From: Nitrospirota bacterium
GTDB taxonomy: Bacteria > Nitrospirota > JACRHL01
Reading direction: 5' to 3'
Assembly (NCBI GenBank): GCA_029881725.1
Contig: JAOUMB010000001.1
Coordinates: 17,321 to 81,320 of the forward strand
DNA length: 64,000 nucleotides
Shown here: one piece after another, positions 1 through 52,186 of the stretch
Layout: each line of letters begins with the position of its first letter
How positions within the stretch are numbered: the first letter of the stretch is position 1
Notes under the pieces: generated by a model
The model's input: the letters and a program-made list of their open reading frames with translations, nothing else
The model's database searches: none
Told to the model about the DNA's origin: nothing
Program-made: the position numbers and the translations under genes

Positions 1-128
1 GGCGAGTGTGTAGGACACTCCCGGCGCCAGCACAAACAGCAGTGCCTGATACAACAAAAATGTGGCGATGGTGTTGGCCGCTCCCAGCAACACAAATCGG
101 GCGCCCTGGCCCGCAGTTTCCCGGTGTC

Positions 129-1079
129 TCACGAGCCGCTGTCGACCAGACGCTGGAACGTGGCGTAATCGCGCACGTAGTCCGCCTCATCGTAAGGTAG
201 GGACGCCAGCACCATCAACACCGCGTCACGGGTGAACTTGTATTGAATGCCCCACACCCGGGGAGGAATGTACACCCCCGCGTTTGGACTGGTAAGGCGC
301 ACCTCCCGCGAGTAGCTGCCGTCGTCCACCACCACGCTCAGTTCACCGCGCATGGCCAGCAGAAACTGGTGACACTCCAGATGCGCGTGCTCGCCACGTA
401 CCCGGTCGTTGGGCACGTCATATACCATGAACATGCGCTGCGGCATGAACGGCAACAGGGTGTTGAAATCCGCCACTCCCAGGCTGCCGCGCAGGTCGCG
501 GAACTGGGGCAGGTGGATCAGCACGCTGTCACCCACCCCCAGGGATTCCCGGTTACCGACCCGCTCAGGTGCGGAGGGGACCGCGCCACGGGCGCTGTCC
601 GCCGGGGAGTGGGCCGCATCCACATAGCTATTGATGCGTGCGGGATTGCCATACACAATGGCCTTGGGCGGCACATTGCGGGTCACCACCGCCCCGGCGC
701 CCACCATGGCACCCGCGCCAATGGTGATGCCCGGCAGAATGGTGGCACCGCCGCCGATGGACGCCCCCGCCTCCACCACGGTTTCGGCAAAGCGCTCCGG
801 ATACTGGCGGGAGCGGGGGAAGCGGTCGTTGGTGAAGGTCACGTTGGGGCCGACGAACACGTCGTTCCCCAGCCGCACGCCGTTCCACAACTGCACCCCG
901 CACTTGACCGTCACCCGGTCCCCCACCCGCACATCGTTCTCGACAAACACGTGGTCGCAGAGGTTGCAGTCCTCCCCGATCACCGCCCCCGGAAGCACGT
1001 GGGCGAACGCCCAGATGCGGGTGCCGCGACCGACGGATTCGGATTCACACAGGGCCTGGGGATGAAGAAATACGCTCAT
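129..1079 (-). CDS. Bifunctional sugar-nucleotide enzyme: N-terminal left-handed beta-helix (hexapeptide-repeat) N-acetyltransferase fused to a C-terminal FdtA/WxcM-like cupin dTDP-4-keto-6-deoxyhexose 3,4-ketoisomerase
   Basis: 316-aa ORF. N-terminal half has hexapeptide-type repeats (IGEDCNLCDHVFVENDVRVGDRVTVKCGVQLWNGVRLGNDVFVGPNVTF, GAGAMVGAGAVVTRNVP). C-terminal half (FRDLRGSLGVADFNTLLPFMPQRMFMVYDVPNDRVRGEHAHLECHQFLLAMRGELSVVVDDG) resembles the FdtA/WxcM cupin ketoisomerase fold. Adjacent to an aminotransferase and a GT2 in the same orientation. Confidence 0.7.
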   Translation of the reverse strand: MSVFLHPQALCESESVGRGTRIWAFAHVLPGAVIGEDCNLCDHVFVENDVRVGDRVTVKCGVQLWNGVRLGNDVFVGPNVTFTNDRFPRSRQYPERFAETVVEAGASIGGGATILPGITIGAGAMVGAGAVVTRNVPPKAIVYGNPARINSYVDAAHSPADSARGAVPSAPERVGNRESLGVGDSVLIHLPQFRDLRGSLGVADFNTLLPFMPQRMFMVYDVPNDRVRGEHAHLECHQFLLAMRGELSVVVDDGSYSREVRLTSPNAGVYIPPRVWGIQYKFTRDAVLMVLASLPYDEADYVRDYATFQRLVDSGS

Positions 1080-1086: not shown

Positions 1087-2061
1087 TCACTCGGAATCGC
1101 GGGCCGGGTAGGTGGCGCTGAGGGCCACCAGACTTTGTGGACGGCGGCGGGTGTTTTCGGCGATGCGCCACAGGTAGCACCCGATAAAGCCCTGGGTGAA
1201 CAGAAGGGTGAAGCCGACGAACAGGATCACCAGCATGATCGGCGTATAGCCCGGGACCTCGATCACCCCCAGCAGCCACGACAGGTAAATCACCACCGCC
1301 AGCACCAGAGTCACAACACACCCGATGGTACCCACCCACAGCAGCGCCAGAATCGGGAAATCCGAAAACGAAAAAATGCTGTCCAGCATGTACTGGAAGC
1401 GTTTGCCGAAACTCCACGCGCTCTTGCCGTGTTCCCGCTCCCGTCGACGGTACGGGACGAAGGCGCGCCGGTACCCAACCCAGAACAGTTGGGCCACCAG
1501 CGAACTGTTGGTCTCCTCGATCTGAAGCAATGCCCCGCGCACCTGCTCATTGCAGGCAAACACATCCACCCCGCCCGCCGGCACGTCGCGGATCACCAGC
1601 TTGCGGTAGACATACCAGAAGGCGCTGGATAAGGATTTGGTGAACCACCCGTCAGCACGGCCGGTGCGACGGCCGAACGCCACGTCAGCCTCACCCGCAC
1701 GCAGGATGCGGAAAAACTCAGTGATCAGTTCCGGCGGCTCCTGAAGATCGGCGGCCAGCACTGCAAAAAAGCGCCCGCGCGCCAGCTCCAGACCGGTACG
1801 AATGGCCGGAAAAGCACCGAAGTTGCGCGATAGCCCCACCAGTTGCGACTGGAAGGGCATGGCTGGAAGGCGTTCCGCCAGCATGGTATATGAATTGTCC
1901 GGTGAGCCGTCCACCACGAACACCACCTCGAAACCCGTACCAATCTCCCCCGCCAGCGCAATGAGGGCCTCCAGCAGGGAGGGGATGTTTTCCTCGTTGC
2001 GGTACACAGGGATCACCAACGAACAATTGATGCCGTCCGCCGTGGCACCCGCTTTCTGCAT
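1087..2061 (-). CDS. GT2 polyprenyl-phosphate glycosyltransferase (GtrB/ArnC/WxcL-like) with two C-terminal TM helices
   Basis: Start set at internal ATG (MQKAGATADGINCSLVIPVYRNEENI...); the track ORF extends upstream into a low-complexity Arg/Gly region. GT-A motifs (VIPVYNE, VVFVVDGSPD, DLQ) and a C-terminal hydrophobic tail typical of Und-P glycosyltransferases. 8-bp gap to the upstream aminotransferase and 7 bp to the downstream bifunctional gene. Confidence 0.75.
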   Translation of the reverse strand: MQKAGATADGINCSLVIPVYRNEENIPSLLEALIALAGEIGTGFEVVFVVDGSPDNSYTMLAERLPAMPFQSQLVGLSRNFGAFPAIRTGLELARGRFFAVLAADLQEPPELITEFFRILRAGEADVAFGRRTGRADGWFTKSLSSAFWYVYRKLVIRDVPAGGVDVFACNEQVRGALLQIEETNSSLVAQLFWVGYRRAFVPYRRREREHGKSAWSFGKRFQYMLDSIFSFSDFPILALLWVGTIGCVVTLVLAVVIYLSWLLGVIEVPGYTPIMLVILFVGFTLLFTQGFIGCYLWRIAENTRRRPQSLVALSATYPARDSE

Positions 2062-2069: not shown

Positions 2070-3173
2070 TCACGGCGCGCCAATGGTCCCGCACACGGTG
2101 CCGATTTCCGCGTCCGTCATTTCCGCAAAACAGGGCAGGCTCAGGATCCGGCCGGTGGCGCGTGCACTGTGGGTGAGGTCGTTCCGCACATGGGTAACCG
2201 ACGCCATCATCGGCTGATCGGGATCCAGCACCGGGTAATGAATGTCGGTGGCCACGCCGTGGGCCTGCAACCGGGCGCGTACGTCGTCCCGCTGATCGAC
2301 CTGCACCACGCACAGGTGCCCGACACTCCCCGGCTGGTCGGCCCCGGCAAAGTGCCATCCGGAAGGGGCGGCATCCCGGTACCGTTCAATGATCTCGCGG
2401 CGGCGCGCATTCCAATCGTCCAGCCGTTTCAGCTTTACCCGCAGCACGGCCGCCTGCAATTCATCCAGGCGGCTGTTGCGCCCATTGGGGATGGCGCTGT
2501 GATACTTGCGGTCCCATCCATACTGTTTAAAGGCCTTCACGGCCTCCGCGTGCGCCTCCGACTGACATACCACCGCCCCTCCGTCGCCCAGAGCGCCCAA
2601 GTTCTTGGTGGGATAAAAGCTGAAAGTGGCCAATTCTCCCATGGAACCGGCGCGGCAATCATCCAGACGCGCGCCGTGGGCCTGGGCACAGTCTTCCAGA
2701 ATCAGCACGCCCGGGTGCCCGGCGGCATCCAGCCGGCTCCGCAGTTGCGGCACGTCCACCACCGAACCGTACAGATGGGTAGCCACCACCACACGGGTGT
2801 TCGGCCCCACGGCATCAAGCGCCGCTTCAATGCTCATCAGCAGAGTGTCCGGACTCACATCCACATACACTGGCCGGGCACCAACCAGATTGCATGCAAC
2901 GGTGGTATATCCGCCCGCATTGGCCACGGTAATCACTTCGCTGTCCGGGCCACACCCGGCCACCCGCAGGGCAATTTCCAGAGCGTCGGTGCCGTTGGCC
3001 ACACTCACGCAGTGGGCGACACCCAGGTAATGGGCAAAGTCTGCCTCAAAGCCGGAGGTCTCCGAACCCAGCAGGTACCAGCCACTCTCCAGCACGCGCT
3101 GCACCGCCGTGTCGATCCCGGCTTTCAGATCTGAATACTGCCGACCCGGCGCATTGAAGGGAATTTTATTCAT
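2070..3173 (-). CDS. DegT/DnrJ/EryC1/StrS-family sugar aminotransferase (dTDP-3-keto-6-deoxyhexose 3-aminotransferase-like, WxcK/FdtB/QdtB-type)
   Basis: Start set at MNKIPFNAPGRQYSDL. PLP aminotransferase motifs (GWYLLGSETSGFEADFA, SFYPTKNLGALGDGGAVV, LPCF). First gene of a three-gene minus-strand cluster. Confidence 0.8.
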   Translation of the reverse strand: MNKIPFNAPGRQYSDLKAGIDTAVQRVLESGWYLLGSETSGFEADFAHYLGVAHCVSVANGTDALEIALRVAGCGPDSEVITVANAGGYTTVACNLVGARPVYVDVSPDTLLMSIEAALDAVGPNTRVVVATHLYGSVVDVPQLRSRLDAAGHPGVLILEDCAQAHGARLDDCRAGSMGELATFSFYPTKNLGALGDGGAVVCQSEAHAEAVKAFKQYGWDRKYHSAIPNGRNSRLDELQAAVLRVKLKRLDDWNARRREIIERYRDAAPSGWHFAGADQPGSVGHLCVVQVDQRDDVRARLQAHGVATDIHYPVLDPDQPMMASVTHVRNDLTHSARATGRILSLPCFAEMTDAEIGTVCGTIGAP

Positions 3174-3452
3174 GTGCAGGTGAATTTTTTTGATTGAGCA
3201 CAACCGTTTGGTTTGCCTTGTCGGTCGTAACCAGATTCGAGTTGAGCCACCGGATTTTCCCGCACACGAGAGACAAAAGCACTTGAAACCATATCCCCAG
3301 CGCCACTACCCTCCCATTACCCGACGGCGGATATCCTGCTGCCGCGCATTCTACGTTTTTCTCCTGCCCCTCACAAGGAACAGGCTACCCACCCCCTCCG
3401 GCGAACACTGTCACTACCCATTAGCCTCCGGGGCATCTTTGGCAACTCCCCC

Positions 3453-5258
3453 ATGCTCACAACGATCTCATACATAATCCTGTCCACAAGGGCACCGTTT
3501 TATCTGTTTTTCACTTCCCTTTTAACACTCCTTTTTATTACCTACCTCCACCCTTCCGAAGCGTTTTATGATGTCCACGATTATCTGGATGCGTTTTTTG
3601 TCTTCCTGGCCCAACGGGCGGAAATTCCGGATTTGTTCTGGAATCTGAATGCCCGAATGGAACGTCCGCTGGGGGGGATTTCTCTGAATGCGGTCGGGAT
3701 AAACGACTTTGGAATCGGCCAGAACCTGTTTTTATGGTTCGACCCTTTCACCGCGCAGGCCATTGCGGAACTGACCTCACGTGTGATCGGATTTGTCGGC
3801 ACGTTCCTGTTTGTCAGCAGGCATGTGATCCCTCCGCATGCCCGTTCGGGATCAGTATTTATCGCATCCCTCAGCGCTCTCATGTTTGCCATTGCGCCCC
3901 ACTACCCGGCTTTTTATGCAACCGTCACAATGGTGCCTCTGCTCGCATTCGCGGTAGCCAATATCTGGTCCGGAAAGCATCGCCAGACGGACTTTGCCAT
4001 CATTGGTGCATACCCGTTTTTTTCCTACTTTATATTTGGCGGTTTTGCCGTCACCGGAGTGCTTCTTTGGGTCGCAACAATCGCCTTCGTACTGCGCAAC
4101 AAATCAGCACTGATACTGGCACTTACCGGACTTTATCTTCTGCTGGCATACTGTTTGATGGAATACCGCCTGATTGTCGACCTTCTTTTCTCCACAACCC
4201 CTTCGATCCGTTCCGAGTTTATCCACCCGGAGTATTCGGGACTGCCCGCGATCCTGTCGTCGGCATGGGGCGTATTTCTGCACGGGCAACGCCATTTCAA
4301 AGGGGTTCTTTACGGATTCTCGGCGTACTTCGTCTACACCACATCTATCTTTTTTTTCGCTGCCGCCCTGGCACGGCGGTACGGGGTGCGTTTTCTCCCC
4401 GAGCTTCCCAGTCGATCACTTCTCTGGGCTATCCTCTCCATCGGATTGGCCGCACTTTGTTCCATCGTTTACGCGATGGATAACAACGGTCTTTTCAACC
4501 TCAAATACGACATCGGTCTTCCGTTTCAGTTCAACCGCATCATCGTATGGGTGCCTTTCCTCTGGGCGGTTGCTTTTGCGTCCACGCTCTCCTTGGCTAC
4601 TAGCTGGTTTCCCGGGATTCGTGTTCTCCTGCTGGTTGGAATTGCGGTTCTTTCGCTACAGGGAACCTGGGCTCATATCGACGGAATCCATCCCAAGCTC
4701 GGACTGCTCTCCTGCCGCATGTCGGGTAACGGTGAGTGCTCCAAATGGCTCGACCCCATGCGCCCCGCAGCGCAGGTTTCCATTCGCGCCTATTTCCGGC
4801 AGAAAACCTATGAAAAACTGGCTGGAGCCATTGGAAAACCACAGGACCAGTACCGGGTAGTAAGCGTTGGACTCAGCCCAATGACCGCAGTTTTTAACGG
4901 GTTCTTCACGCTTGATGGATACCTAACCAACTATCCCCTTTCCCATAAGGCGGCCTTTCGCAAAATCATTTCCGGTGAGTTGGAAAAGGATGATCGCTTG
5001 ATGCGGTATTTCGACACGTGGGGCGGTCGCGCACGTTTGTTTATTGCAGATCCTGATTCCTGGGCCGGTTTTCGGTCCATTCAACGACCGAACGCCGGAC
5101 CGGTAGACCTGGCCATCGATACCTGCCAGATTTGGTTCATGGGGGGGGAATATATATTTTCCCGTTACCTTTTGGTCAATGCGGAAGAGCTGAACCTTGA
5201 CCTCAAGGGGATCCTCGATGACATTTTTCTGTACGAGATACGCCCGGATTCGTGCTGA
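3453..5258 (+). CDS. Polytopic integral membrane protein (about 11-13 predicted TM segments plus a roughly 200-aa C-terminal soluble domain); candidate GT-C-fold (ArnT/GtrC/YfhO-like) periplasmic glycosyltransferase
   Basis: 601-aa ORF with many hydrophobic segments followed by a hydrophilic C-terminus. Markedly lower GC and AT-rich codons compared with its neighbours. Divergent from the aminotransferase-GT2-isomerase/acetyltransferase cluster. The GT-C assignment is by architecture and context only. Confidence 0.5.
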   Translation: MLTTISYIILSTRAPFYLFFTSLLTLLFITYLHPSEAFYDVHDYLDAFFVFLAQRAEIPDLFWNLNARMERPLGGISLNAVGINDFGIGQNLFLWFDPFTAQAIAELTSRVIGFVGTFLFVSRHVIPPHARSGSVFIASLSALMFAIAPHYPAFYATVTMVPLLAFAVANIWSGKHRQTDFAIIGAYPFFSYFIFGGFAVTGVLLWVATIAFVLRNKSALILALTGLYLLLAYCLMEYRLIVDLLFSTTPSIRSEFIHPEYSGLPAILSSAWGVFLHGQRHFKGVLYGFSAYFVYTTSIFFFAAALARRYGVRFLPELPSRSLLWAILSIGLAALCSIVYAMDNNGLFNLKYDIGLPFQFNRIIVWVPFLWAVAFASTLSLATSWFPGIRVLLLVGIAVLSLQGTWAHIDGIHPKLGLLSCRMSGNGECSKWLDPMRPAAQVSIRAYFRQKTYEKLAGAIGKPQDQYRVVSVGLSPMTAVFNGFFTLDGYLTNYPLSHKAAFRKIISGELEKDDRLMRYFDTWGGRARLFIADPDSWAGFRSIQRPNAGPVDLAIDTCQIWFMGGEYIFSRYLLVNAEELNLDLKGILDDIFLYEIRPDSC

Positions 5259-6106
5259 GGAAAGTCCCCCAGGTGCCCCAAATACCCCGTACCATCCTCA
5301 TCACCGGCGCCTCCTCCGGTATTGGCCGCTGCGCGGCGCTGATGTTCCGGGACCGGGGCTGGCGGGTGTTCGCCACCGCCCGCAAGGACGAGGACCTGGA
5401 GGCGCTGGAGGCGGAAAACGTGACCCCCATCCGTCTGGAACTGGCGGACACCGCCTCGGTGCAGTCCACCGCCGCGCAGGTGCTGAACGCCACCGGCGGG
5501 CGGCTGGACGCCCTGTTCAACAACGGCGCCTACGGCCAGAGCGGCGCCATCGAGGACCTGTCCCGCAGGGCGCTGGAAGAGCAGTTCGCCACCAACCTGT
5601 TCGGCACCGTGGAACTGACCAATGCGGTGCTGCCCGCCATGCGCGCCAACGGGCACGGGCGCATCGTGATGAACAGCAGCGTGCTGGGACTGGTGTCCCT
5701 GGCCTATCGGGGGGCCTACAACGCCAGCAAATATGCCCTGGAGGGGGTTTGCGACACCCTGCGGCTGGAGCTGAAAGGCTCCGGCATCCACGTCTGTCTG
5801 GTGGAGCCGGGGCCGATCCTTTCGCGTTTCCGGGCCAACTCCTATCTGGCCTTTCAGCGCCATATCGACGCGGAGGCCAGTGTGCACCGCGATCGCTACC
5901 GGGCCATGCGCGAGCGGCTCAACACGAAGGGCGCCGCCGTGCCCTTCACCCTGCCGCCGGAAGCGGTGGTGAAAAAGGTCATCCACGCGGTGGAAAGCCG
6001 ATCCCCACGCCCGCGCTACTACGTGACCTTCCCCACCTATCTGTTCGGTTTGTTACGCCGGGTACTGTCCACCCGCATGCTGGACCGGCTGCTGGCCCGG
6101 GTCTAA
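5252..6106 (+). CDS. Short-chain dehydrogenase/reductase (SDR) family oxidoreductase
   Basis: TILITGASSGIG Rossmann motif and NASKYALEG catalytic region (YxxxK). Start is uncertain: GTG at 5252 overlaps the upstream stop; GTG at 5273 is also possible. Confidence 0.8.
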   Translation: MLRKVPQVPQIPRTILITGASSGIGRCAALMFRDRGWRVFATARKDEDLEALEAENVTPIRLELADTASVQSTAAQVLNATGGRLDALFNNGAYGQSGAIEDLSRRALEEQFATNLFGTVELTNAVLPAMRANGHGRIVMNSSVLGLVSLAYRGAYNASKYALEGVCDTLRLELKGSGIHVCLVEPGPILSRFRANSYLAFQRHIDAEASVHRDRYRAMRERLNTKGAAVPFTLPPEAVVKKVIHAVESRSPRPRYYVTFPTYLFGLLRRVLSTRMLDRLLARV

Positions 6107-35379: not shown

Positions 35380-36495
35380 CTAACGGGGGACTCCCGCCAG
35401 GGCCTCCAGCAGGTCCGCCCCCACCCGTTCCACGGAACAGAATTCCCGCACCCGCGCCACGCCCGCTTCGACCATTTTCCGATAGTGATCCGGCTCGTCG
35501 ATCAGGTGCGCGAATTTTTCCACAAACCCGGCTTCGTCGTCGTACAGGCACCAGGACAGTTCGCCGGTAAATAACTCATCGAACGGCCCCCACCGGTTGC
35601 ACAGCACCGGCAGGCCTGCCGCCATGGCGTCCACCACCACGTTGGGAAACACGTCCATTTCGGAACAGTAGACCAGCACGTCGGCCTCGCCCATGCGGCG
35701 CGGCAAGTCGTTCACGCGGCCGGGAAATTCGATGCGGCCCCGAAAGCGGCTGGCGCGCCACCGGTCGCGGCTCAGGCGGAAATAGCGCCCATCTCCGGCC
35801 AATGTCCAGTTCACTTCCGGGCGCGCGGCCATCACCGCCTCCATCAGGCCGTACAGGCGCAGCACCCCTTCGGTTTTGAGGCGGAACATGTACACCGTGG
35901 CGGTCAGCGCGCGCACCCCGCGCGCCGGGTCGGGCACGTAACCGGTGCGCACCCTGCCCACCGGCTTGGTGCTGCGCACCACCGCCATGGGGGTGCCTGG
36001 GAGCAGCTCTCGCGCCTTTTTTTGCAGATGCTCCGACATGGGCCACACGGCGTCGGCCACCGCCAGGTTGTGGAACCACACCCCGCGGTACCATTCGGCC
36101 TTGCCCCTGGTCCACCACCAGCGGGCAGCCACCACCTCGTCATACTCGCGCCAGGCATCGCCGCGCAGGCGCACCACGTAGCGGCACCCCAGCGCCTTGA
36201 TCCGGTCCACGAACCACGAATCCAGCAGCAACCGGTCGGTAAGCACGATCTTGTGCCTGTGCGGCAGCGCCGCGATGGCGTTCAGGGCGCGGCGGGAAAA
36301 CAGCTCCCCCACCCCCGGCACGCGCACGGTGATGGCCAGCGCGTGGCCGGGCAGAAAGTAGCGCTCGTAGGGCAGCGTTACCAGCGTGACCGGCAGCGCC
36401 TCCAGCGCCGCGCCAATCTCCGCGTAGCGCGGCGAGTGGATATAGATCAGGGCGGTGTCCTGCGGGGTCATGGCCTGTGCCGATCCGGCGGTCAT
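35380..36495 (-). CDS. GT4 (GT-B fold, RfaG/WbaZ-like) glycosyltransferase
   Basis: C-terminal GT-B donor-binding region (EADVLVYCSEMDVFPNVVVDAMAAGLPVL). Start ATG overlaps the stop of the upstream GT2 (ATGA). Confidence 0.8.
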   Translation of the reverse strand: MTAGSAQAMTPQDTALIYIHSPRYAEIGAALEALPVTLVTLPYERYFLPGHALAITVRVPGVGELFSRRALNAIAALPHRHKIVLTDRLLLDSWFVDRIKALGCRYVVRLRGDAWREYDEVVAARWWWTRGKAEWYRGVWFHNLAVADAVWPMSEHLQKKARELLPGTPMAVVRSTKPVGRVRTGYVPDPARGVRALTATVYMFRLKTEGVLRLYGLMEAVMAARPEVNWTLAGDGRYFRLSRDRWRASRFRGRIEFPGRVNDLPRRMGEADVLVYCSEMDVFPNVVVDAMAAGLPVLCNRWGPFDELFTGELSWCLYDDEAGFVEKFAHLIDEPDHYRKMVEAGVARVREFCSVERVGADLLEALAGVPR

Positions 36496-37418
36496 CCGCC
36501 CTTCAACCCCCGCATCACCCGCCACAGGAACCGCTGCAGCGGAACCCCGAACAGGGTGTCGACCAGCAGGACATACATCCCCAGCCGTTGAACCGGTGTT
36601 TCCAGAAACGCCCGCACCAGATAGCGCGATCCGTTGCGAAAATCCCGGTCGCGGAAATAGTGGTGCGCCACCTCCGACCAGCGGACGGCAAGCGCCTTGC
36701 GTTCGGTTCCGTGCCCGTATTTCGCAAAGCGGTCACCATGCTTGGACAGCAGGTGGCGGGTGGAGTTTTCCACGGACTCGCCGGTGGGGTTCCCGTCCCG
36801 GTACACCCGGGCCAGCGGCTTGGGGACCAGCACCAGTTCATACCGCTCCGCATAGCGCAGCAGCCAGTCCCAGTCGGTAAAGCGCGGCAGCGCGGTATCG
36901 TAATAGCCTACCTCGTCGAACACATCACGCCGAACCAGCAGCGTGGCGCCCGGAAACAAGCCGCACCCCATCAGCAGCAGCTTTTCCAGCGGGCGCGACA
37001 GGTGCGGAATCCTGGGGTAGGCCTCGCCGTCCGCCACCAGTTCGATGCCGCAGATGCAGCCGCGCACCGGGTCCGGGGCGCCTTCCAGCACTTCCAGTTG
37101 CGCGGCCAGCTTTCCGGGCAGCCATTCGTCGTCGGAATCCAGATAGGCCACATAGCGGCCGCGCGCGGCCCGCACGCCGGTATTCCGCCCCGCGGCCTCC
37201 CCGCCGTTGACCTCATGGCGGATCAGGCGCACGCGCGGGTCGTCCACGGACTCCACGGCGGCCACCGTCCCGTCCGTGGACCCATCGTCCACCACGACGA
37301 TCTCCAGATCAGGCACCGACTGCTCCAGCACGCTGCGGATGGCCCGCACGATGGTTTTCTCCCTGTTGAACGCGGGCATGACCACGCTTACCAGCGGAGT
37401 GGCGGAAGGTTCAAACAT
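36492..37418 (-). CDS. GT2 family glycosyltransferase
   Basis: VSVVMPAFNREKTIVRAIRSVLEQSVPDLEIVVVDDGSTDGT...YLDSDDEW GT-A/DXD motifs. Confidence 0.8.
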   Translation of the reverse strand: MFEPSATPLVSVVMPAFNREKTIVRAIRSVLEQSVPDLEIVVVDDGSTDGTVAAVESVDDPRVRLIRHEVNGGEAAGRNTGVRAARGRYVAYLDSDDEWLPGKLAAQLEVLEGAPDPVRGCICGIELVADGEAYPRIPHLSRPLEKLLLMGCGLFPGATLLVRRDVFDEVGYYDTALPRFTDWDWLLRYAERYELVLVPKPLARVYRDGNPTGESVENSTRHLLSKHGDRFAKYGHGTERKALAVRWSEVAHHYFRDRDFRNGSRYLVRAFLETPVQRLGMYVLLVDTLFGVPLQRFLWRVMRGLKGG

Positions 37419-38334
37419 ACATCTTCCCCAATCCGCGCCTGACGGCAGTGCCCAGGTTTCTCAGGAAGGCCAGTGGCCACAGCGGATTGAACCGCAAACC
37501 CCGCATCGCATACCCGATCGCCCGGAACAGGCGCAAGGAGCGCAACGCATGGTTGACCGCGTCAGACGCAAACCGGGAATGAGCCTTCTGGAGGACCCGG
37601 CGAAAGGACGCGGGGAAACCGGAGCCTTCAAGATACTTTTCCGCCAGACCCATGTCCTCCTCCAACCGGGGAAGGACGCTGCCAGAAGAGCGGTTGATAG
37701 AAATGGAGCCTCCGTGCAGCAGGTAGTGGTAAACATCCCCGTCGAGACACGCGTGATTCGGATTCAACAGGGCCGCCCGCAAGAGCAAATCCCGGTCGGA
37801 CGCGACTGGAAACGATGTGTCAAACCCGCCGACGGTGTCCAGAAAGGCGCGGCGGAAAAAGCGGGCATTGATGACCACCGCCCCCTGGGCCAGCATTTCC
37901 GGGGCCATGGCGAGGCGTTCCGCTCCCGCATAACGCAGCAGTTCCTTCTGGTGTGTACCTTGCTGCTCCCACACCACCGCCGCCCCCGACACCATGTCCA
38001 GGTTCGGTTGCCGGCTGAGATAATCGGCAACCAGCTTGAACGCACCGGACGCATACCGATCGTCGGTATTCAACAGGCCCACCCATTCTCCGGTGGCGCG
38101 CGCAATTCCCTTGTTGATGGCGTCGTACAGCCCGTCGTCCGGTTCGGATACCACCTTCAGATGCGGATATTTCGCCAGCACTTCCAGTGTGCCGTCGGTG
38201 GAGCCGCCGTCCATGACGATGTGCTCGAAATTGGGATAATCCTGGGCCAGCAGACTTTCAATAGCCTCGGCCACAAAGTCCCGCCGGTTCAGGCACGGGG
38301 TGACGATGCTGATGCGGGGCAGCGAGCCGCTCAT
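37411..38334 (-). CDS. GT2 family glycosyltransferase (paralogue A of a tandem pair)
   Basis: Start at [56 protein letters not shown] is near-identical to the same block in the next gene. Confidence 0.8.
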   Translation of the reverse strand: [307 protein letters not shown]

Positions 38335-39239
38335 GCGCCCGCCCCCAGCCGCCGGCGCACATTCCTGAGTACCCGTCCCGAAAAATAGAACGGCCACCAG
38401 GGGTCGCACCGCCAGCCCCTGGCCGCATAGGCGATTGCCCGTGCCGGGTGGCCGTCACGCAGGGCGGCAAACACCCCGTCGGTGGCCGCATGGCCGTGCC
38501 AGCGGCGGCAAGCGGCGCGCACCGGTCCCGGAGTGCCGGGTGCGCGCAGGTAGCGGCGCGGGATTTCCAGGTATTCCTCAATCAGCCGCCCCGCCACCGG
38601 CGTGCGCAGGGCGAAGGTCAGGGATCCCGCATGACGGCGGTAGCGGTACACGGTTTGATCCACCTGCTCCCCGCGCACCCCGGCCATGTACACGCGCAGC
38701 AGGAATTCCCGATCGGCGGCGATGCGGAAATCCGTGTCGTACAGCCCCACCCGCGCATACACCCCGGCGCGGAAAAAGCGCGCGTTGATCATCGGCTCCC
38801 CCACCGTCACATGGTGCAGGGTGAGCGGCCCGTAGACGGGACCGGAATATTCCGCCACGGTGCACGCGCCGTCCGGCCCGTCCTCGAATTCCAGTGCGCC
38901 GCCCGCCACCATGTCGGCCTGGGGGGATTCGGCAAACGCGCGCGCGATGCACGCAAAGGCGCCGGGCACATACAGGTCGTCGCTGTTCAGGTGGCCTAAA
39001 ATCTCCCCCGTGGCCATGCGGATGCCCTTGTTGATGGCATCGTACAACCCGTCGTCCGGTTCGGATACCACCTTCAGATGAGGATACTTCGCCAGCACAT
39101 CCAGGGTACCGTCGGTGGAGCCCCCGTCCACGATAATATGCTCGAAGTGGGGATACTCCTGAGCCAGCACGCTCTCCACCGCCTCAGCAATCATTTCGCG
39201 CCGGTTCAGGCAGGGGGTGATGATGGAAATCGTAGGCAT
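38331..39239 (-). CDS. GT2 family glycosyltransferase (paralogue B of a tandem pair)
   Basis: Start at [52 protein letters not shown]. 4-bp overlap with the downstream paralogue. Confidence 0.8.
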   Translation of the reverse strand: [302 protein letters not shown]

Positions 39240-39332
39240 GGAAGCTCTCAAATGATCCGGGATATTCCTTCGCAAACAGGTCCTGTATATCGTCGGATTC
39301 GTGTGGGCGATGCGGATACGAAAAGCGTCTGG

Positions 39333-40268
39333 CTACCAGTCGTCTTCCGTATAAAAATGAGCAGATATGCTTCCAGTTTTTTCCCGAATGCGCGCAATTT
39401 CCTCGTCAGTCAAACGTTTTTTCCAGGAATGGATCAGGTTGGAACTGTCCCTCCGAATCTCATGCTTCCCCTCGGTTTCCGAAGGATTTTCCGCCGATGT
39501 GTGGGCACGTATCACGTTCCGAACCTCGGGAGACAGAGATTCTCCAAGCGCCTGAAATACATCGCTGAAGCCACCCTCCGGATCCCGGGAAATGTCTTCG
39601 TGGCGAATAAATATCCAGTCTGGATGTCGATCGCGGTACCCGCGAATGGTCTCATGAATCAGATTCCACAGCAGGCAACCTTGGTCCACTATATTCATGT
39701 CCTGCGCAGCAAACTGCTCCAATTCACCCTTGAATTCACCTGCCATATCGCGCATGAACAAAGGCTGCCGGGTAAAATGGTCGAACGGGTGGGGCCATTC
39801 CGCCTTCTTCAGGCTGGAAACAAACGCCGCTGGATGCCGGATCATGGCGACAACCTGCATGTTGAACCGGCGCGCCAGCCATTCCGCTGAAAAAATGGCG
39901 ATCGGATCCTTTAGCAGCGGGCGGCGTCTCTCTCTTTTAAATAAACGGAACTCACGCCATTCCCAAAGTATTTTCATCATTTGCTTTGGACCCAGGCGTG
40001 GCGCCTGTCGCAGCCTTTCCATCGTGGAAAACGAAAACGTAACCGTGTCACAAAGCGCTTCATCAACCATTTCCGCATTGTCATCACAAATATAGGTGAA
40101 CCAAAGCGGAACATCGGCCCGGAACTGACCTCGGGAGTGGTTCACGTTAAACGGTTCGTGGATATACCCGAAGCGTGGGGATGCACAAAGCATCCGGCCC
40201 ACCCAGGTGGTTCCCGAACGATGTGATCCGGTTACCAGTACCGGTGAGTTTGTCCTGCCAGCGTTCAC
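39333..40268 (-). CDS. PAPS-dependent sulfotransferase family protein
   Basis: 5'-PSB-like P-loop VLVTGSHRSGTTW and downstream 3'-PB-like region (RHPAAFVSS). Lies in a lower-GC patch inside the glycosyltransferase operon. Confidence 0.75.
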   Translation of the reverse strand: MNAGRTNSPVLVTGSHRSGTTWVGRMLCASPRFGYIHEPFNVNHSRGQFRADVPLWFTYICDDNAEMVDEALCDTVTFSFSTMERLRQAPRLGPKQMMKILWEWREFRLFKRERRRPLLKDPIAIFSAEWLARRFNMQVVAMIRHPAAFVSSLKKAEWPHPFDHFTRQPLFMRDMAGEFKGELEQFAAQDMNIVDQGCLLWNLIHETIRGYRDRHPDWIFIRHEDISRDPEGGFSDVFQALGESLSPEVRNVIRAHTSAENPSETEGKHEIRRDSSNLIHSWKKRLTDEEIARIREKTGSISAHFYTEDDW

Positions 40269-40280
40269 TCCACATTCTCC

Positions 40281-40991
40281 TTACCCATTGGGAACTCCGG
40301 TTTCGGCTCCCGAGCGCTTCCCAAAGACCTTTCGAAACTGAGCAATGTCCTGAAAAGCAGGCGAAAGGGCCCTCAATTCCTCTTCCGGCAACTCCCACCA
40401 GCGGCTCTCCAGAAGAAAGCGGATATCGTCTTCCTCAAACCGGTATCGAATCAGCCGTGCCGGGTTGCCACCCACGATGGCGTACGGCGGCACATCCTTG
40501 GTAACCACTGCCCCGGCGGCCACCACGGCGCCTGTGCCAATGGTTACGCCACCGGGAATTATTGCCCGGTTGCCAATCCACACGTCGTGGCCGATCTCGG
40601 TGGGCAGCGGATCTTCGTCAAACCCCGGCCGGGTCACAAACGAGCAGCGGCAACCCGAGTTGTCCACCGAAAAAAAAGCCGGATAGGTGGACACGAAATC
40701 CCGCGCCGGGTGGCGGAACATGCCGATCTGCACCTCCTGCCCGATGGAGCAGAAGCGGCCCGCCCGCACATTGACCAGAATGGCCCCCTGCGCGGCATAC
40801 GAAAAATCCCCCAACCCGCTCCGAACCAGCCTGCTACGGTCGTGCGCCACCGAATGCCGCCCCAGGGTGCTCTCGATCACCCGCGCCCCGGCGGCCACCC
40901 GCACATTGCGCTCGGGCGTCGTCTGCCACATTTCCCTTCCGGTCAGCAGTCCCACGCCGCGACGCAGAATCCGCAACAGTCTCCGTATCAT
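40281..40991 (-). CDS. Hexapeptide-repeat O/N-acetyltransferase (xenobiotic acetyltransferase XAT / CatB-like subfamily)
   Basis: Start placed at MIRRLLRIL. Left-handed beta-helix repeats ([53 protein letters not shown]), which are XAT-like. Confidence 0.75.
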
Positions 40992-41004
40992 GGCGTCCTC
41001 CCCA

Positions 41005-42186
41005 TTATTTCGGGTCTCCGGCAATGCTCCGCCACAGTTTGCGAAACACGACCCGGATGACAAACCTGATGGCCGTGCGCGGCATGTATTTCGCGCAGAA
41101 TTCCTCGAACAGAAGGTGGTCGGACGGCGGTTTAAGGTTCGCGTCCCGCCGACACAGGATCAGGTCCTCCCCCTCAATCCCGTAGATGACGTTGGCAACC
41201 TCCGGTTTCATGCGCAACCCGAAACCCATCCGAGCAGTATTGCTCCTGCGTGTGGTCAGAACATATTCGGCGGCCACCTTGGAGAGGTCTTTCGAACCGT
41301 GCACGTCCACCGCATAGTCGTATCCCCGCAACCGGCCGGTGAGACGATTCAGCCGATCCGGGAGGATCTCGAAATGGGCGTCATACACCGCCACCGCCGA
41401 ATCCAGTGACTGAAACCGGAAAGGTGTTCCCTCCCGGGCCAGCGGCACCTGAAACATCAGGGTGGTCGACAGAAAGTGGGTCCCCGGTTCTCCTGTGTTG
41501 GTGGTCAGGCTTACTCGCGGAAAGACAAAATACCGGTCGCTCTCCACCATGTATTTGATAAAGCGCTTCAGCCACGAGCTGTCCGGCCAAGCGATGACCG
41601 AATCGGGCAACGGGTCGTCCTTGGATACCCCTTTTCCATCCCCATACCATTGCCGGAATGCGCTCCATTGGGTAGCGCTCCACGCCTGCCCCCAGGAGGA
41701 GGCAAACTGGATGAAAAACACGTCGCCCAGGTCGGGGACGGGGGAGAACGGCCTTGCCAGATAGGGAACCAGCGTGTGGCAATACAGCGAAATCCCGGCG
41801 ATGCGCGGGTCGTCACGGTAACTGTCCTGGGCATCCATCGTGTACCGGTAAAACGCGGGGGACACCAGCAGGTCATCCTCCAGGACGATAACCCCGCCGT
41901 ACTCCAGGGACAGGTCCCCACACGCGAGAATGTGCTCCCGCAGCCCCAGATTTTCCGGGTGTTCAATAATCCGTTTGGGGCCAAACCGCCAGTCAAACGC
42001 CCGTGCGGCCGTCGCCACCGCATCGGTATCGCTCTTGTCGATGCTGATGACCAGGGTCACCGGCTCCTCCGGATAGGCTGCCTGCGCCAGGGTACCCAGC
42101 AACCGGACGAGGGCGTCGGGGCGGTTATAGGCGGCCACCACAATGGCCGGGATTTTTCCGCTGTTCACGGTTTGTTGGTCGGTCAC
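41005..42186 (-). CDS. GT-A fold glycosyltransferase resembling eukaryotic-type N-acetylglucosaminyltransferase I (GnT-I / CAZy GT13-like)
   Basis: [22 protein letters not shown] ... [37 protein letters not shown] parallels the MGAT1 core (AVVVVACNRPEYL... VVEDDLEVAPDFFEYF...DPSLWCVSAW), including the EDD metal-binding motif. Assignment is from remembered family motifs, not a search. Confidence 0.6.
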
Positions 42187-42232
42187 GCGGCGCTCCCCCG
42201 GCGGCTGTGAATGGCTTGAATCCTCATGTCGA

Positions 42233-43159
42233 TTACCGGCCGATCAACATGGCAAGACGACCCACATAGTCCATCAATGGAGCGACTTCTTCGACCTGAT
42301 ACTGCTGCCAGTACGGATACCTTTCCCGATCTCTGAACCACACCTTGATCATGCCCTTGAAAACCAGTCTTCCTGCAGTCAGGAAAAACCGCCCAACCCA
42401 GTCTCGCCAACGCCAACCGTAATCTCCAAACAATACGTAACCTGACTTCCCGATCAGGTAACGAACCCTGAAATAATGGGGAACGGTCATTTTTCGGGGA
42501 GGCGCCAGGTGTTCCACCATCAATTCCGGATGGTAATACGCCTTTAACCCCGGTTTATATTCCCTGGCGTGGCGAATCAACAAGGTCTCCTCTCCAAACG
42601 CAAACGCATCCCCTTTTGGCCCGACCTCCGTATCAAACCCACCCAATTTATCAAGCAGGTCCTTCTGAAAAAACAGATTGGAGCCAGAAATATATTGTCT
42701 GTCATTCAGCCACCCCGGGGTATCCAGAACGCGGCGGATTTCATATTGGTCCTTAAACCACACAGGTCTGTTGGTCAGGTAAAACGGGTAGATCGATCCA
42801 CCGAAAATATCCGGCTCATGCTCGCGGATGATCTCAATCGCACGGCTGATCCAGTCGGGCATGGCACGGGCATCGTCATCCATGAACGCCACATAGGCGG
42901 CGCGCGCTTCGCGCCACCCTGCATTTCGGGCCACGCTGGCTCCCGGAACCGGCTCATCGATCACTTTGAAAAAAGGGTATTTAGCTGCATATTCCGCAGC
43001 AATTTCCGCAGTGTTATCGGTGCAATTGTTATTGACGATGATGACTTCATACTGGCCTTCGCATCCAACCTGCCGCACCAGCGAGTTAAAACAGCCGTCC
43101 AGAAGGTCCGCTCGATTATAGGTGGCCACCACCACGCTGATGATCGGGGTTCCACTCAT
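42233..43159 (-). CDS. GT2 family glycosyltransferase
   Basis: Start at MSGTPIISVVVATYNRADLL (ATG overlapping the upstream stop, ATGA). DXD-like FMDDDA. Lower-GC codon usage. Confidence 0.8.
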   Translation of the reverse strand: MSGTPIISVVVATYNRADLLDGCFNSLVRQVGCEGQYEVIIVNNNCTDNTAEIAAEYAAKYPFFKVIDEPVPGASVARNAGWREARAAYVAFMDDDARAMPDWISRAIEIIREHEPDIFGGSIYPFYLTNRPVWFKDQYEIRRVLDTPGWLNDRQYISGSNLFFQKDLLDKLGGFDTEVGPKGDAFAFGEETLLIRHAREYKPGLKAYYHPELMVEHLAPPRKMTVPHYFRVRYLIGKSGYVLFGDYGWRWRDWVGRFFLTAGRLVFKGMIKVWFRDRERYPYWQQYQVEEVAPLMDYVGRLAMLIGR

Positions 43160-44100
43160 TGGTTCCACAACTCCCTCTCAATCCATTTTCCCAGCCGGGC
43201 ACGAACCAGAGGAAACAGTCGGAATCCGGCCATGGAATCCAGAACCCCCGCAACGCTGGCCGGAGTACGGAAGGAGAAGAGGTCCAGTTTCATTGCCTTC
43301 AGAAAGTGGCTACGGGCTTCTGATATCTCACCCCCGGAATAAAGCTGTTCCGCACCGTGATAGTTGTGCCATGAGCGGATCCGACTCTCCTGACGCAACA
43401 CCCTCTGATCCCGGCACTGCCGAAAAAACCGTTCCAGAATCACCTCCCGTTCGCGCACAAACGGTATCCGGCTGCCACCGGTTTTGCTTTCATCATGCAG
43501 ACGAAACATCGCCAGGGGTTCATGCAGATACGCAAAATTAAAGGACAGGCTCGCCCGGTACCAGAAATCCACGTCCATCACGTAGTGAAGCGCCGGATCA
43601 AACGATTCCAGGGCATCCAAAACTCTGCGTCGGATAAACACGGTGGGTTGAAAGATAAAATTGCGGCACAATTGAACGGCCACATTAAATGGTCGGCTCT
43701 TCCACACCTGCTTTCGGCGCCCTTCTGCATCGATTACCGTCAAATCCGAATAAACCAGGTCCACTTCAGGGTGCTGCTCAAAATATTCCGCCACGCGCCA
43801 GAACGCGCCCGGCTCGTACAGGTCGTCCGAGTTCAGGTAGGCGACGATATCGCCGGTGCTCCTGCGCAACCCCTTGTTGATGGCGTCGGTCTGCCCGTTG
43901 TCCGGTTCGCTCACCCACCAGGCCAGCCGGTCCGCGTATTTTTCGATGACGTCGACGCTGTTGTCGGTGGAGCCGCCGTCCACCACCATGTATTCCAGAT
44001 TCGGATAATCCTGATCCAGCACCGAACGGATGGTTGCGTCCAGAAATTGTCCCTGGTTGAAGGACGGGGTGACGACGGAGATGCGGGGCATTTCAATCAT
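43156..44100 (-). CDS. GT2 family glycosyltransferase (third member of the ISxxTPxxN...VDGGSTD paralogue family)
   Basis: MIEMPRISVVTPSFNQGQFLDATIRSVLDQDYPNLEYMVVDGGSTDNSVDVIEKYADRL...YLNSDDLY shares the same block structure as the genes at 37411-39239. Confidence 0.8.
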   Translation of the reverse strand: MIEMPRISVVTPSFNQGQFLDATIRSVLDQDYPNLEYMVVDGGSTDNSVDVIEKYADRLAWWVSEPDNGQTDAINKGLRRSTGDIVAYLNSDDLYEPGAFWRVAEYFEQHPEVDLVYSDLTVIDAEGRRKQVWKSRPFNVAVQLCRNFIFQPTVFIRRRVLDALESFDPALHYVMDVDFWYRASLSFNFAYLHEPLAMFRLHDESKTGGSRIPFVREREVILERFFRQCRDQRVLRQESRIRSWHNYHGAEQLYSGGEISEARSHFLKAMKLDLFSFRTPASVAGVLDSMAGFRLFPLVRARLGKWIERELWNQ

Positions 44101-44106
44101 GCGGCG

Positions 44107-44988
44107 CTAGGAGAACAGGGAGTCGTAGTCGACCCGTTCAAACACATCCAGAAAACCGCCCTTGGTGGCGTTGTAAATACGAATTCCGTGCCGTTCGGCA
44201 TAGGTCCTTTGCCGGCGGTACCCTTCCCACATTCTGACCACGGCACTGGCCAGTTTGTCGTAGGGCCAGTCACCAACACCCGTATCTCCCGGTTGGGGGG
44301 GGAAGAAGTGCCGGTACCCTTCCTGGCCATATTTCAACCAATCATGGTCCATGCCGATCAGATAGATTTCACTGGCCCCCATGTACATCGCCAACTGGAT
44401 GCACATGACCGGCGTGGTTTGACACGAAGGCAGTGGACGGGTCAAGTCGAGTTCGAACCCTTCCACGGTGGGATCCACGTCCCCTCGCTGGTACAGATAA
44501 CGCAGATCCTTACCCGCAAACACGCCGCTTTCTTCCAGCGCCTGCCGGGCCTGCACCGGAACAAAATAGCTCTTTGCCCGCACCCGCTCGGATACACCGG
44601 AAACAAACTCCTGCACCCAGGGGTCGGACGCAATCTCCTTGATTTTCGGGTCCACCCCCACCCAATAGGTCGGGCTCCACCTGTCCAGCAGGGGTGAACG
44701 GTGGAACAGGTTGACCACAAAGGTGACTTCACCAAAAATGCGGGTCAGGTCGAGTTCGTTCAAGGAGGGTCCGTTGCCCAGAATAAAACAGCGCCGACCG
44801 TCCAGCGCCCCTTTGAGGTCGGCGTTGCGGCTCAGGGCTTTCCTTCCGCTGTCGCCAACCTCCTGGAGCCTCACTTCCTCCAGACGTTTCCGCTCCTGCG
44901 CTTGCAGCTTCCGATGGTGGGCCTCGACCAGGCCATGGGGCGTGATCCACCGGGCCATTCGGCGCATCGTTTGGGATATCCCTTTCAT
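44107..44988 (-). CDS. DUF115 / Maf (motility-accessory-factor)-like protein; candidate nonulosonic-acid (pseudaminic acid) transferase
   Basis: RCFILGNGPSLNELDL motif characteristic of the DUF115/MptE-like family, to which the Campylobacter Maf flagellin pseudaminyl-transferases belong. Start ATG overlaps the pseI stop (ATGA). Confidence 0.65.
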   Translation of the reverse strand: MKGISQTMRRMARWITPHGLVEAHHRKLQAQERKRLEEVRLQEVGDSGRKALSRNADLKGALDGRRCFILGNGPSLNELDLTRIFGEVTFVVNLFHRSPLLDRWSPTYWVGVDPKIKEIASDPWVQEFVSGVSERVRAKSYFVPVQARQALEESGVFAGKDLRYLYQRGDVDPTVEGFELDLTRPLPSCQTTPVMCIQLAMYMGASEIYLIGMDHDWLKYGQEGYRHFFPPQPGDTGVGDWPYDKLASAVVRMWEGYRRQRTYAERHGIRIYNATKGGFLDVFERVDYDSLFS

Positions 44989-46052
44989 TCAATCAGATCC
45001 CAGGATGCGGGGGTGCCGCGCCGAACACTACGGGTCACCCGCTTTCCCATCAATGTGCCAATGAACTTGGGGGGTAATCCATGTCCCGGTCGAATGGCAC
45101 GCAGGTTTTCCCCGGAAAAAGCCTCTCCCGCCTCCATATCCTTCACCACATAGAGAGAGCGTCGAAACCGGATGGAGGCCCGTTCTTTTTCGGTGGGGCC
45201 GTACGAAATGCTGCCCAATGCCTGCCAGGCCCGCTCACTTTCGACCACCAGCGCCTTCAGTTCACCCGGTTCCAGCGAAAAAGCGGAATCCACCCCGCCA
45301 TCGGCCCGCGCCAGGGTGAAGTGCTTTTCAAGGAGCGTGGCCCCCAACGCCACGCTGGCCACCGCCACCCCAACGCCCATCGTGTGGTCCGACAGCCCCA
45401 CCTGACAACCAAATAACTCCCGCATGTGGGGTATGGTGAGGATGTTGGTGTTTTCCGGGGTGGCCGGATAGCTGCTGGTGCATTTGAGCAGAATCAGGTC
45501 CCCGCAACCGGCCTCCCGCGCGGCGGTGACTGCTTCGTCCAGCTCGGCCACGGTGGCCATGCCGGTGGAGATGATCATCGGCTTTCCAGTGGCGGCCACC
45601 TTGCGGATCAAAGGCAGGTCGATATTCTCGAACGATGCGATCTTGTAAGCGGGAACGCCCAGTTCCTCCAGAAAATCCACGGCGGTTGCGTCGAACGGGG
45701 AACTGAACGCCACCAGCCCGCGCTCCTTGCACCGGTCCAGAATCGGCCGGTGCCATTCCCAGGGGGTATGTGCCTTCTGGTACAGGGCATACAGATTTTC
45801 TCCATGCCACAGGCTGGAGGGGTCATCGATGGCAAACTCCCCCTCCTTCAGGTCCAGGGTCATTGTGTCCGCGGTATAGGTCTGAAGCTTGAGCCCGTGC
45901 GCGCCCGCATCGGCGGCCGCATCGACAATCTCCAGCGCCCGCTCGAGGGACTGATTGTGGTTGCCGGACATCTCGGCAAGGACGAAGGGCGGATGAGCCG
46001 GCCCAACCGAAACCCCACCAACGGAGATGACTGTACTGTCTTTTTCCACCAT
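44985..46052 (-). CDS. pseI: Pseudaminic acid synthase (NeuB family)
   Basis: Start at MVEKDSTVISVGGVSVGP. FVLAEMSGNHNQSLERALEIVDAAADAGAHGLKLQTY, YKIASFE, LKCTSSYPA and GLSDHT motifs, plus a C-terminal SAF domain, closely parallel PseI/NeuB. Confidence 0.9.
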   Translation of the reverse strand: MVEKDSTVISVGGVSVGPAHPPFVLAEMSGNHNQSLERALEIVDAAADAGAHGLKLQTYTADTMTLDLKEGEFAIDDPSSLWHGENLYALYQKAHTPWEWHRPILDRCKERGLVAFSSPFDATAVDFLEELGVPAYKIASFENIDLPLIRKVAATGKPMIISTGMATVAELDEAVTAAREAGCGDLILLKCTSSYPATPENTNILTIPHMRELFGCQVGLSDHTMGVGVAVASVALGATLLEKHFTLARADGGVDSAFSLEPGELKALVVESERAWQALGSISYGPTEKERASIRFRRSLYVVKDMEAGEAFSGENLRAIRPGHGLPPKFIGTLMGKRVTRSVRRGTPASWDLIE

Positions 46053-46060
46053 TTCTCCTC

Positions 46061-46312: not shown

Positions 46313-46335
46313 CGTCTTTCGCTTTCCGCGGATGC

Positions 46336-48729: not shown

Positions 48730-52177
<3,448 letters not shown>

Positions 52178-52186
52178 GGTCCGCTA

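Follow-up and report, generated by a model that had tools for sequence, protein, structure and literature searches.

A low-GC DUF6044 gene, most likely acquired horizontally, encodes a putative GT-C glycosyltransferase beside a host-like sugar-donor cassette in a Nitrospirota bacterium

We analysed a stretch of 64,000 nucleotides (nt) from a Nitrospirota bacterium (contig JAOUMB010000001.1, positions 17,321 to 81,320), called the window below, in which an earlier note had pointed out a low-GC island holding a single membrane-protein gene. The island (3174..5258) consists of a 279-nt intergenic region and an open reading frame (ORF) for a polytopic membrane protein of 601 amino acids (aa) belonging to the Pfam family DUF6044 (3453..5258, + strand). 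In the reading that we favour, with a probability of about 0.7, this protein is the GT-C glycosyltransferase (GtlB/YkoS family, which is DUF6044) of a three-component system based on undecaprenyl phosphate, and its gene was horizontally acquired or swapped apart from the host-like, conserved four-gene cassette that lies divergently to its left. Gene calls were taken from an identical public contig (L001), a window position being the L001 position minus 6548.

The G+C content (GC) of 3174..5258 is 52.6%, against a window mean of 63.4%. Bins of 1 kb have a GC of 0.535 (3001-4000) and 0.527 (4001-5000), with 0.62-0.69 in the adjoining bins, which confirms the sharp shift that the earlier note had placed at about 3.2-5.26 kb; the T-rich run quoted there is also present, at about 3499-3542. 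No other 2085-nt stretch of the window is lower (0.526; mean of all such stretches 0.634, standard deviation 0.036), and the equally low ones, 0.13% of all, overlap 3174..5258 without exception. The right border is sharp, GC rising from 0.45 through 0.65 to 0.73 across the stop codon (5256-5258). On the left, GC drops at the start codon of the neighbouring DegT aminotransferase gene, which is ATG 3173 and not 3203, so that the upstream region measures 279 nt (3174..3452) instead of the 250 bp first given. The 65-70% GC first ascribed to the flanking genes also needs correction, the genes of the left flank having 61-65%.

Within the ORF, GC is 0.522 and GC at third codon positions (GC3) is 0.596, low throughout (0.50-0.72 per 50 codons); 51 other window ORFs of at least 150 aa have a mean GC3 of 0.81 (standard deviation 0.067). 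The score of the gene against host usage on a scale like the codon adaptation index (CAI-like score) is 0.37, the minimum of the window. Applied to the same protein, host synonymous codon usage predicts a GC of 0.602 and a GC3 of 0.825. Amino-acid content accounts for about 5 of the roughly 13 missing GC points and synonymous usage for the remainder. As most of the deficit lies in synonymous usage, the composition of membrane proteins was rejected as a full explanation. Such a composition is not typical of membrane proteins here either: GC3 is 0.83-0.88 for AcrB, cytochrome b and a CopD-like protein, all encoded on the same contig. An AT bias intrinsic to the family was rejected as well, the GC of DUF6044 genes minus that of their flanks averaging -1.2% over 79 loci in other genomes. 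Four other GC-richer hosts also have a local trough around their DUF6044 gene, with GC 9-15 points lower than in the flanks: a Chloroflexia bacterium (L070, 7-10 kb), Botryobacter ruber (L025, 7-10 kb), a metagenome-assembled genome (MAG) of Bacteroidales (L018, 8-10 kb) and Thiohalocapsa (L028, 0-8 kb). Given these troughs in unrelated hosts, horizontal mobility of DUF6044 genes may be common.

DUF6044 is the only Pfam family matched by the 601-aa protein (PF19510; E 3e-96, 323.5 bits, with the cut-off at 27; residues 11-589 aligned with positions 6-550 of a 564-position model), and an identical protein from a Nitrospirota MAG carries the NCBI name 'DUF6044 family protein'. The three contigs with the gene come from the same population, and the protein is identical in them. 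A literature search found no paper naming 'DUF6044'. The family can nevertheless be connected with published genetics. In Bacillus spizizenii (locus L008), genes for a 337-aa glycosyltransferase of family GT2, LigD and Ku come in this order after a DUF6044 gene (564 aa, E 7e-247), which is the gene order ykoS-ykoT-ykoU-ykoV, and DUF6044 is thus the YkoS family. A DUF6044 protein of Listeria monocytogenes is 49% identical to that YkoS orthologue and has the motif D35-N-L-D38-S39; because identity and motif equal the figures published for GtlB (Lmo0626; PMC5836110), DUF6044 is the GtlB/YkoS family. When gtlB is deleted, lipoteichoic acid is no longer galactosylated, and neither the D35A nor the D38A variant complements the deletion (PMC5836110).

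The window protein shares 28% identity with GtlB and keeps its DxxD motif as D43-Y-L-D46, in the first outside loop after the first transmembrane helix. Among 37 diverse relatives, D43 is conserved in all, L45 in 35 and D46 in 32, and R253, R362 and D488 are as invariant as D43. The motif loop is acidic (9 D/E versus 3 K/R) and predicted to lie outside. The predicted topology has about 11 transmembrane helices and a C-terminal outside domain (residues ~441-601, alpha/beta in the model), and the positive-inside rule puts both this domain and the motif loop outside. An AlphaFold2 model built on the alignment of the 37 relatives had a mean predicted local distance difference test score (pLDDT) of 86.8 and a predicted TM-score (pTM) of 0.89. 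When it was compared with the PDB by Foldseek, places 1-9 were all taken by GT-C enzymes, namely STT3 of the yeast, dog and human oligosaccharyltransferases, archaeal AglB and mycobacterial AftA, with probabilities of 0.99-1.00 and TM-scores of 0.38-0.43 over nearly the full length. All lower matches, including those to G-protein-coupled receptors and the major facilitator superfamily, were noise (TM-scores 0.1-0.15). A sequence search of the PDB with the window protein returned nothing at E <= 10. Family membership, motif and fold class are thus established, and together they predict that the protein is a putative extracytoplasmic glycosyltransferase of the GT-C class.

An exhaustive HMMER search covering representatives of ~15 billion proteins, clustered at 50% identity, recovered DUF6044 homologues in 1,759 representative clusters, with members in Firmicutes, Bacteroidota, Nitrospirota/Nitrospinota, Chloroflexota, Proteobacteria and a methanogen. 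HMMER was needed to see the family: word-index searches, with the protein alone or with the 37-sequence alignment, found only the protein itself and one match of 28% identity. Hydrophobic low-complexity words probably swamp the candidate lists of such searches for polytopic membrane proteins. The best match in the genome collection belongs to a methanogenic archaeon (a Methanocalculus sp. MAG, L004, 8001-9605; 30% identity), with a GT2 homologue 0.8 kb off, so that the family crosses domains. DUF6044-like coding sequences, 26-37% identical, were found in only four phage records, two of them named 'Listeria phage LM 4-11-1' and two being human-gut 'Bacteriophage sp.' contigs (OR846718.1, OR846727.1, MT835743.1, MT837543.1).

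Genome loci with relatives numbered 80, most of them from Bacillaceae and the others including Syntrophomonadaceae, Bacteroidota, Nitrospinaceae, Thiohalocapsa, Chloroflexia, Leptospirales and Methanocalculus. A homologue of the GT2 glycosyltransferase of the window was present in 67 of these loci, and in 60 it abutted the DUF6044 gene on the same strand. At the window locus a distance of 1.4 kb separates the DUF6044 gene from the GT2 gene (1087..2061), which is part of the divergent operon. Two Syntrophomonadaceae (L021 and L032) have FdtA, GT2, DegT and DUF6044 genes on one strand, with a GtrA gene in addition in L021, all of native composition. The window proteins are 28% identical to those of this module in the case of DUF6044, and 36-39% in the case of DegT, GT2 and FdtA.

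The divergent operon lies on the - strand. Its gene nearest to the low-GC stretch (2070..3173, start ATG 3173, GC3 0.736) encodes a 367-aa sugar aminotransferase of the DegT/DnrJ/EryC1 family (PF01041, 3.6e-90), and because it is paired with FdtA the enzyme probably acts at C3, like FdtB or QdtB. Then comes the GT2 gene (1087..2061), for a 324-aa polyprenyl-phosphate glycosyltransferase resembling ArnC, GtrB, CsbB and PgfS (Glycos_transf_2, 8.9e-21), with an N-terminal GT-A domain and two C-terminal transmembrane helices (234-252 and 269-287); its NCBIfam matches to PgfS (1.7e-38) and ArnC (3e-33) each fall under the equivalog cut-off. A bifunctional protein of 316 aa follows (129..1079), in which an N-terminal hexapeptide (LbH) N-acetyltransferase (Hexapep 2.4e-22, residues 100-134) is fused to a C-terminal FdtA/WxcM 3,4-ketoisomerase (FdtA 3.3e-45, residues 186-311). 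The last gene is cut by the left window end, only its 5' part being included (1..132; L001 6276..6680). It encodes a small membrane protein of 134 aa with three to four hydrophobic segments, assigned to the GtrA family (PF04138, 26.7 bits against a cut-off of 26.1) and predicted to be the flippase for the sugar linked to undecaprenyl phosphate.

By its domains, this operon is predicted to supply everything on the donor side of a three-component glycosylation system that uses a lipid carrier, the synthesis of its own nucleotide sugar included. The FdtA domain would isomerise deoxythymidine diphosphate (dTDP)-4-keto-6-deoxyglucose, DegT would aminate C3 and the LbH domain would N-acetylate the product, yielding a dTDP-3-acetamido-3,6-dideoxyhexose, either dTDP-Fuc3NAc or dTDP-Qui3NAc. 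The membrane-anchored GT2 would load the sugar onto undecaprenyl phosphate, and the GtrA-family protein would flip the lipid-linked sugar to the periplasmic face. There the DUF6044 protein, through its acidic D43-x-x-D46 loop, would move it to a surface glycan. We infer all these steps, and with them the donor sugar and the acceptor, from protein families and gene context; the neighbourhood itself is established. The system most likely adds a 3-acetamido-3,6-dideoxyhexose to a surface glycan. The single-gene island of the earlier note stands as far as composition goes; in function the gene goes with the adjacent four-gene donor cassette of normal GC. In the same way, its description as a gene of the serotype-converting type fits the predicted GtrC-like role in a system of GtrA, GtrB-like and GT-C proteins, while the locus is not prophage-borne and has chromosomal housekeeping surroundings.

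The likeliest acceptor would be an O-polysaccharide exported by an ATP-binding cassette (ABC) transporter, for which Pfam assignments delimit a cluster on the - strand at 35380..55064. This cluster encodes Gmd, an Rmd-like reductase, Wzm, Wzt with a C-terminal domain and proteins like PseB, PseC, PseF, PseG-H and PseI for a nonulosonic acid of the pseudaminic-acid type, together with an MptE-like protein, five GT2 and one GT4-type transferase, a hexapeptide acetyltransferase and a sulfotransferase. An adenosine 5'-phosphosulfate (APS) kinase gene (55349-56014) adjoins it, and the gene content suggests a sulfated glycan capped with nonulosonic acid. An O-polysaccharide of the ABC-transporter type is completed in the cytoplasm, so that decoration with side branches in the periplasm is the use to be expected of such a system. 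A fuller reading, in which the DUF6044 GT-C replaced an unrelated transferase beside the cassette for dTDP-3-acetamido-3,6-dideoxyhexose and its transfer to undecaprenyl phosphate, and decorates this O-polysaccharide, possibly sulfated and bearing nonulosonic acid, is offered tentatively, and we hold it to be rather less probable than its opposite. GC3 within the glycan cluster is lowered to 0.57-0.76 over ~37.4-53.2 kb, with low CAI-like scores. Two of its genes on the - strand, for a sulfotransferase (39333-40268) and a GT2 (42233-43168), each of 311 aa, come near the DUF6044 gene in composition (GC 0.526 and 0.525, GC3 0.574 and 0.599, respectively) and are further candidates for a foreign origin.

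The composition of the stretch is established; its history, including the direction and time of transfer, we infer. The transferase gene and its intergenic region most likely had a history separate from that of the cassette: they would have come horizontally from a lower-GC genome, and they have not been ameliorated. This conclusion follows from the composition step at the gene borders, the lack of AT bias in the family and the unrelated partners found in relatives of the cassette. These partners came from the converse search, made with DegT, which retrieved about 14 metagenomic loci with the order DegT-GT2-Hex/FdtA, some of them with GtrA as well, at 45-60% identity; the closest DegT in Joint Genome Institute (JGI) metagenomes is 52% identical. 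The retrieved flanks of these closest cassette loci held no DUF6044 gene. Their polytopic neighbours were of the PMT_2 type or had no Pfam family, and hhalign detected no homology between two such neighbours and DUF6044. Different lineages thus combine the donor cassette, which is conserved as a unit, with different transferases, and the unrelated membrane partners fit a transferase gene replaced by horizontal transfer.

Several points weigh against the reading just given. As to function, the GT-C fold matches are only moderate (E 6e-4 to 8e-3 at the TM-scores given above), and published evidence on members of DUF6044 is genetic rather than biochemical, as for GtlB, and names no target for YkoS/YkoT. 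RmlA and RmlB are not in the window, so the identity of the sugar assumes that both are encoded elsewhere, and the acceptor assignment is a guess from a cluster ~30 kb away. As to origin, horizontal transfer is deduced from composition and neighbour mismatch rather than from a phylogeny. The donor lineage, which the earlier note had hoped to find by homology, was not identifiable: the best non-self homologue is 35% identical and sits on a 4.7-kb contig of ~50% GC with uninformative neighbours. Scans for repeats and tRNA genes revealed no scars of mobility, and with no near-identical homologue found either, these searches lend no support to the recent date proposed in the earlier note. The GC-normalised dinucleotide signature of the stretch, in the top 7.7% of windows, is only moderately atypical. 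Finally, low GC3 occurs in further glycan genes of the window as well, which leaves room for an effect of the locus class.

The alternative that survives best, though we consider it unlikely, is vertical descent of a native DUF6044 gene, whose low GC3 would reflect weak or different codon selection, or local AT-biased mutation, in poorly expressed glycan genes. The AT shift is indeed also seen in the sulfotransferase (39333..40268, 0.574) and GT2 (42233..43168, 0.599) genes and in the cluster at 37-53 kb, which is mostly at 0.60-0.76. The genes of the cassette, with GC3 values of 0.73-0.82, include three that are mildly shifted themselves (GtrA, GT2 and DegT, 0.73-0.77; Hexapep-FdtA, 0.82). 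The missing mobility scars, the lack of a close homologue and the moderate dinucleotide signal would all suit a native gene. However, a GC3 deficit of 23 points bounded exactly by one gene could hardly be produced by expression level alone, regulators near the gene and other membrane proteins stay at 0.80-0.88, the family has no AT bias of its own, and the closest relatives of the cassette have unrelated partners.

We give somewhat less credence still to a joint arrival of all five genes, from GtrA to DUF6044, with a cassette that has since ameliorated or that came from a GC-richer part of the donor. Whole modules with DUF6044 do occur as single operons in the two Syntrophomonadaceae, and the GC3 and CAI-like scores of the cassette genes are slightly below those of their housekeeping neighbours. 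Genes that arrived together should, however, ameliorate together, whereas the adjacent genes here differ by 14-22 GC3 points; the 28% identity of the DUF6044 protein to the Syntrophomonadaceae module falls short of the 36-39% of its partners, and the closest cassette homologues (45-60% identical) come without DUF6044. That the protein is no glycosyltransferase but another polytopic enzyme or transporter (a Wzy-like polymerase, WaaL-like ligase or flippase), or a partner of the short-chain dehydrogenase/reductase (SDR) whose gene overlaps or abuts its stop codon, is very improbable, for against the want of an enzymatic assay and the modest fold-search E-values stand top structural matches that are GT-C only, the conserved DxxD motif that is essential in GtlB, the tight pairing with a polyprenyl-phosphate GT2 across the family (60 of 80 loci) and the rarity of SDR homologues, which no more than two of the 80 loci (L004 and L072) have within 8 kb, at 27% identity and several kilobases from the DUF6044 gene.

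The intergenic region between the two divergent units (3174..3452, 279 nt) has a GC of 0.552 and a pyrimidine-rich top strand, and it presumably carries the promoters of both. Scans of this region gave one weak sigma-70-like promoter match, at chance level, and terminator matches also at chance level. No Shine-Dalgarno sequence precedes ATG 3453, and the DUF6044 ORF has no other in-frame start. The leader of the gene (3300-3452) is strongly C-rich on the top strand, with a GC skew of about -0.40 in 3301-3600. A further ORF of 95 aa (3190..3477, + strand), which overlaps the true gene start and is absent from the gene calls, was treated as spurious.

On the right the island is bordered by the SDR oxidoreductase gene (5252..6106, + strand; adh_short 9.9e-41), which is host-like (GC3 0.874) and reaches 371 bits with NCBIfam PRK05993, against a cut-off of 387. 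Two start codons come into question for it: GTG 5252, which would give an overlap of 7 nt with the DUF6044 stop, and an in-frame GTG at 5273, which lies behind AGGAAAG. The protein has 284 aa as called and 274 aa in the NCBI version. The closest non-self SDR is 68% identical, and the named near matches are from Gammaproteobacteria and other Pseudomonadota.

The rest of the window is chromosomal, with genes for a resistance-nodulation-division (RND) pump, two-component systems, GGDEF/EAL proteins, chorismate synthase, Pst and cysteinyl-tRNA synthetase. The 64 kb contain no tRNA gene, the locus has no integrase or insertion sequence element, Rfam gave no matches, and direct or inverted repeats flanking the stretch did not exceed chance. 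Amid housekeeping genes lies a TraT-like gene (22141-22965, + strand) of the complement-resistance lipoprotein family. A further modifier of surface glycans may be encoded by an AT3-SGNH (OafA-like) acyltransferase gene (59308..61299). The most atypical dinucleotide signature of the window belongs to the stretch at 60-62 kb, where two small ORFs (61436..61732, - strand, and 61768..62127, + strand, GC 0.517) have no Pfam match.

Taken together, these results tie DUF6044, a Pfam family of unknown function, to GtlB/YkoS genetics and to a defined donor pathway. The family had been studied only in Firmicutes, and only with galactose on lipoteichoic acid, and had not been discussed for diderm bacteria; if correct, ours would be the first assignment of a donor sugar and an acceptor to DUF6044 in Gram-negative bacteria. 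The exchangeable part of the three-component glycosylation system would be the acceptor-specific transferase, as with Xanthomonas wxcO and phage gtrC. A foreign-looking transferase beside a separate donor cassette is ordinary for bacterial surface-sugar genes and implies no new mechanism. For the annotation of Nitrospirota MAGs, it predicts a variable surface epitope, a potential phage receptor or antigen.

Among known systems, GtlB/YkoS with the GT2 partners GtlA/YkoT and the flippase GtcA is the one to which the window protein is related by family, with homology over the full length and a conserved DxxD loop. GtlB and YkoS are likewise paired with a GT2 of the CsbB/GtlA type and a GtrA-family protein, and are predicted to use a lipid-linked monosaccharide on the outer side of the membrane. 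The differences are the identity of 28%, the donor, which is derived from uridine diphosphate (UDP) and delivers galactose in the case of GtlB and is predicted to be a dTDP-3-acetamido-3,6-dideoxyhexose here, and the gene order, GtlB/YkoS genes being co-transcribed with the GT2 gene whereas the DUF6044 gene of the window is divergent from it. The acceptor must also differ from that of GtlB, since the host is an uncultured diderm Nitrospirota bacterium without teichoic acids.

The GtrA/GtrB/GtrC systems of Shigella and Salmonella phages, which glucosylate the O-antigen in serotype conversion, follow the same three-component logic: undecaprenyl phosphate is loaded by a GT2, the product is flipped by GtrA, and the transfer in the periplasm falls to a polytopic transferase specific to the type. 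The window, too, encodes a GtrA-family flippase and a GtrB-like GT2 together, and in both cases the gene of the type-specific transferase is the divergent one. The phage systems are prophage-borne, whereas the window locus has no tRNA gene or integrase and lies among chromosomal housekeeping genes; their transferase probably belongs to another sequence family, and, unlike them, the window cassette makes its own unusual nucleotide sugar. A resemblance to ArnC/ArnT, the system that modifies lipid A with L-Ara4N, extends to the GT2, which matches ArnC (under the equivalog cut-off, as noted). With the solved GT-C enzymes (STT3/PglB/AglB and AftA), the window model shares the fold, the acidic first outside loop and the C-terminal outside domain; it has about 11 transmembrane helices rather than 13, and no sequence match in the PDB.

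The closest parallel in gene content is the wxc region 3 of Xanthomonas campestris, which adds an N-acetylfucosamine side branch to a rhamnan O-antigen made by an ABC-transporter pathway, the branches being lost in wxcK and wxcN mutants (PMC4878081). There wxcK, wxcL and wxcM are ~98-99% conserved and the large membrane protein at the wxcO/XCC0613 position is swapped between strains, one allele having 53.5% GC in a genome of ~65% (PMC2238763, PMC13133917). Compared with wxcK-wxcL-wxcM-wxcN and wxcO/XCC0613 by domain content only, the window has the aminotransferase, the GT2, the acetyltransferase-FdtA fusion, the GtrA-like protein and the large membrane protein. WxcO and XCC0613, which are likened to the window protein by description, have 730-750 aa in place of 601, and the Xanthomonas cassette lies inside the O-antigen cluster whereas that of the window is ~30 kb away. 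Both nevertheless share their region of the genome with an ABC-transporter O-antigen cluster that includes gmd and a gene like rmd, and in Xanthomonas, as at the window locus, the large membrane protein is the variable, low-GC and exchanged part.

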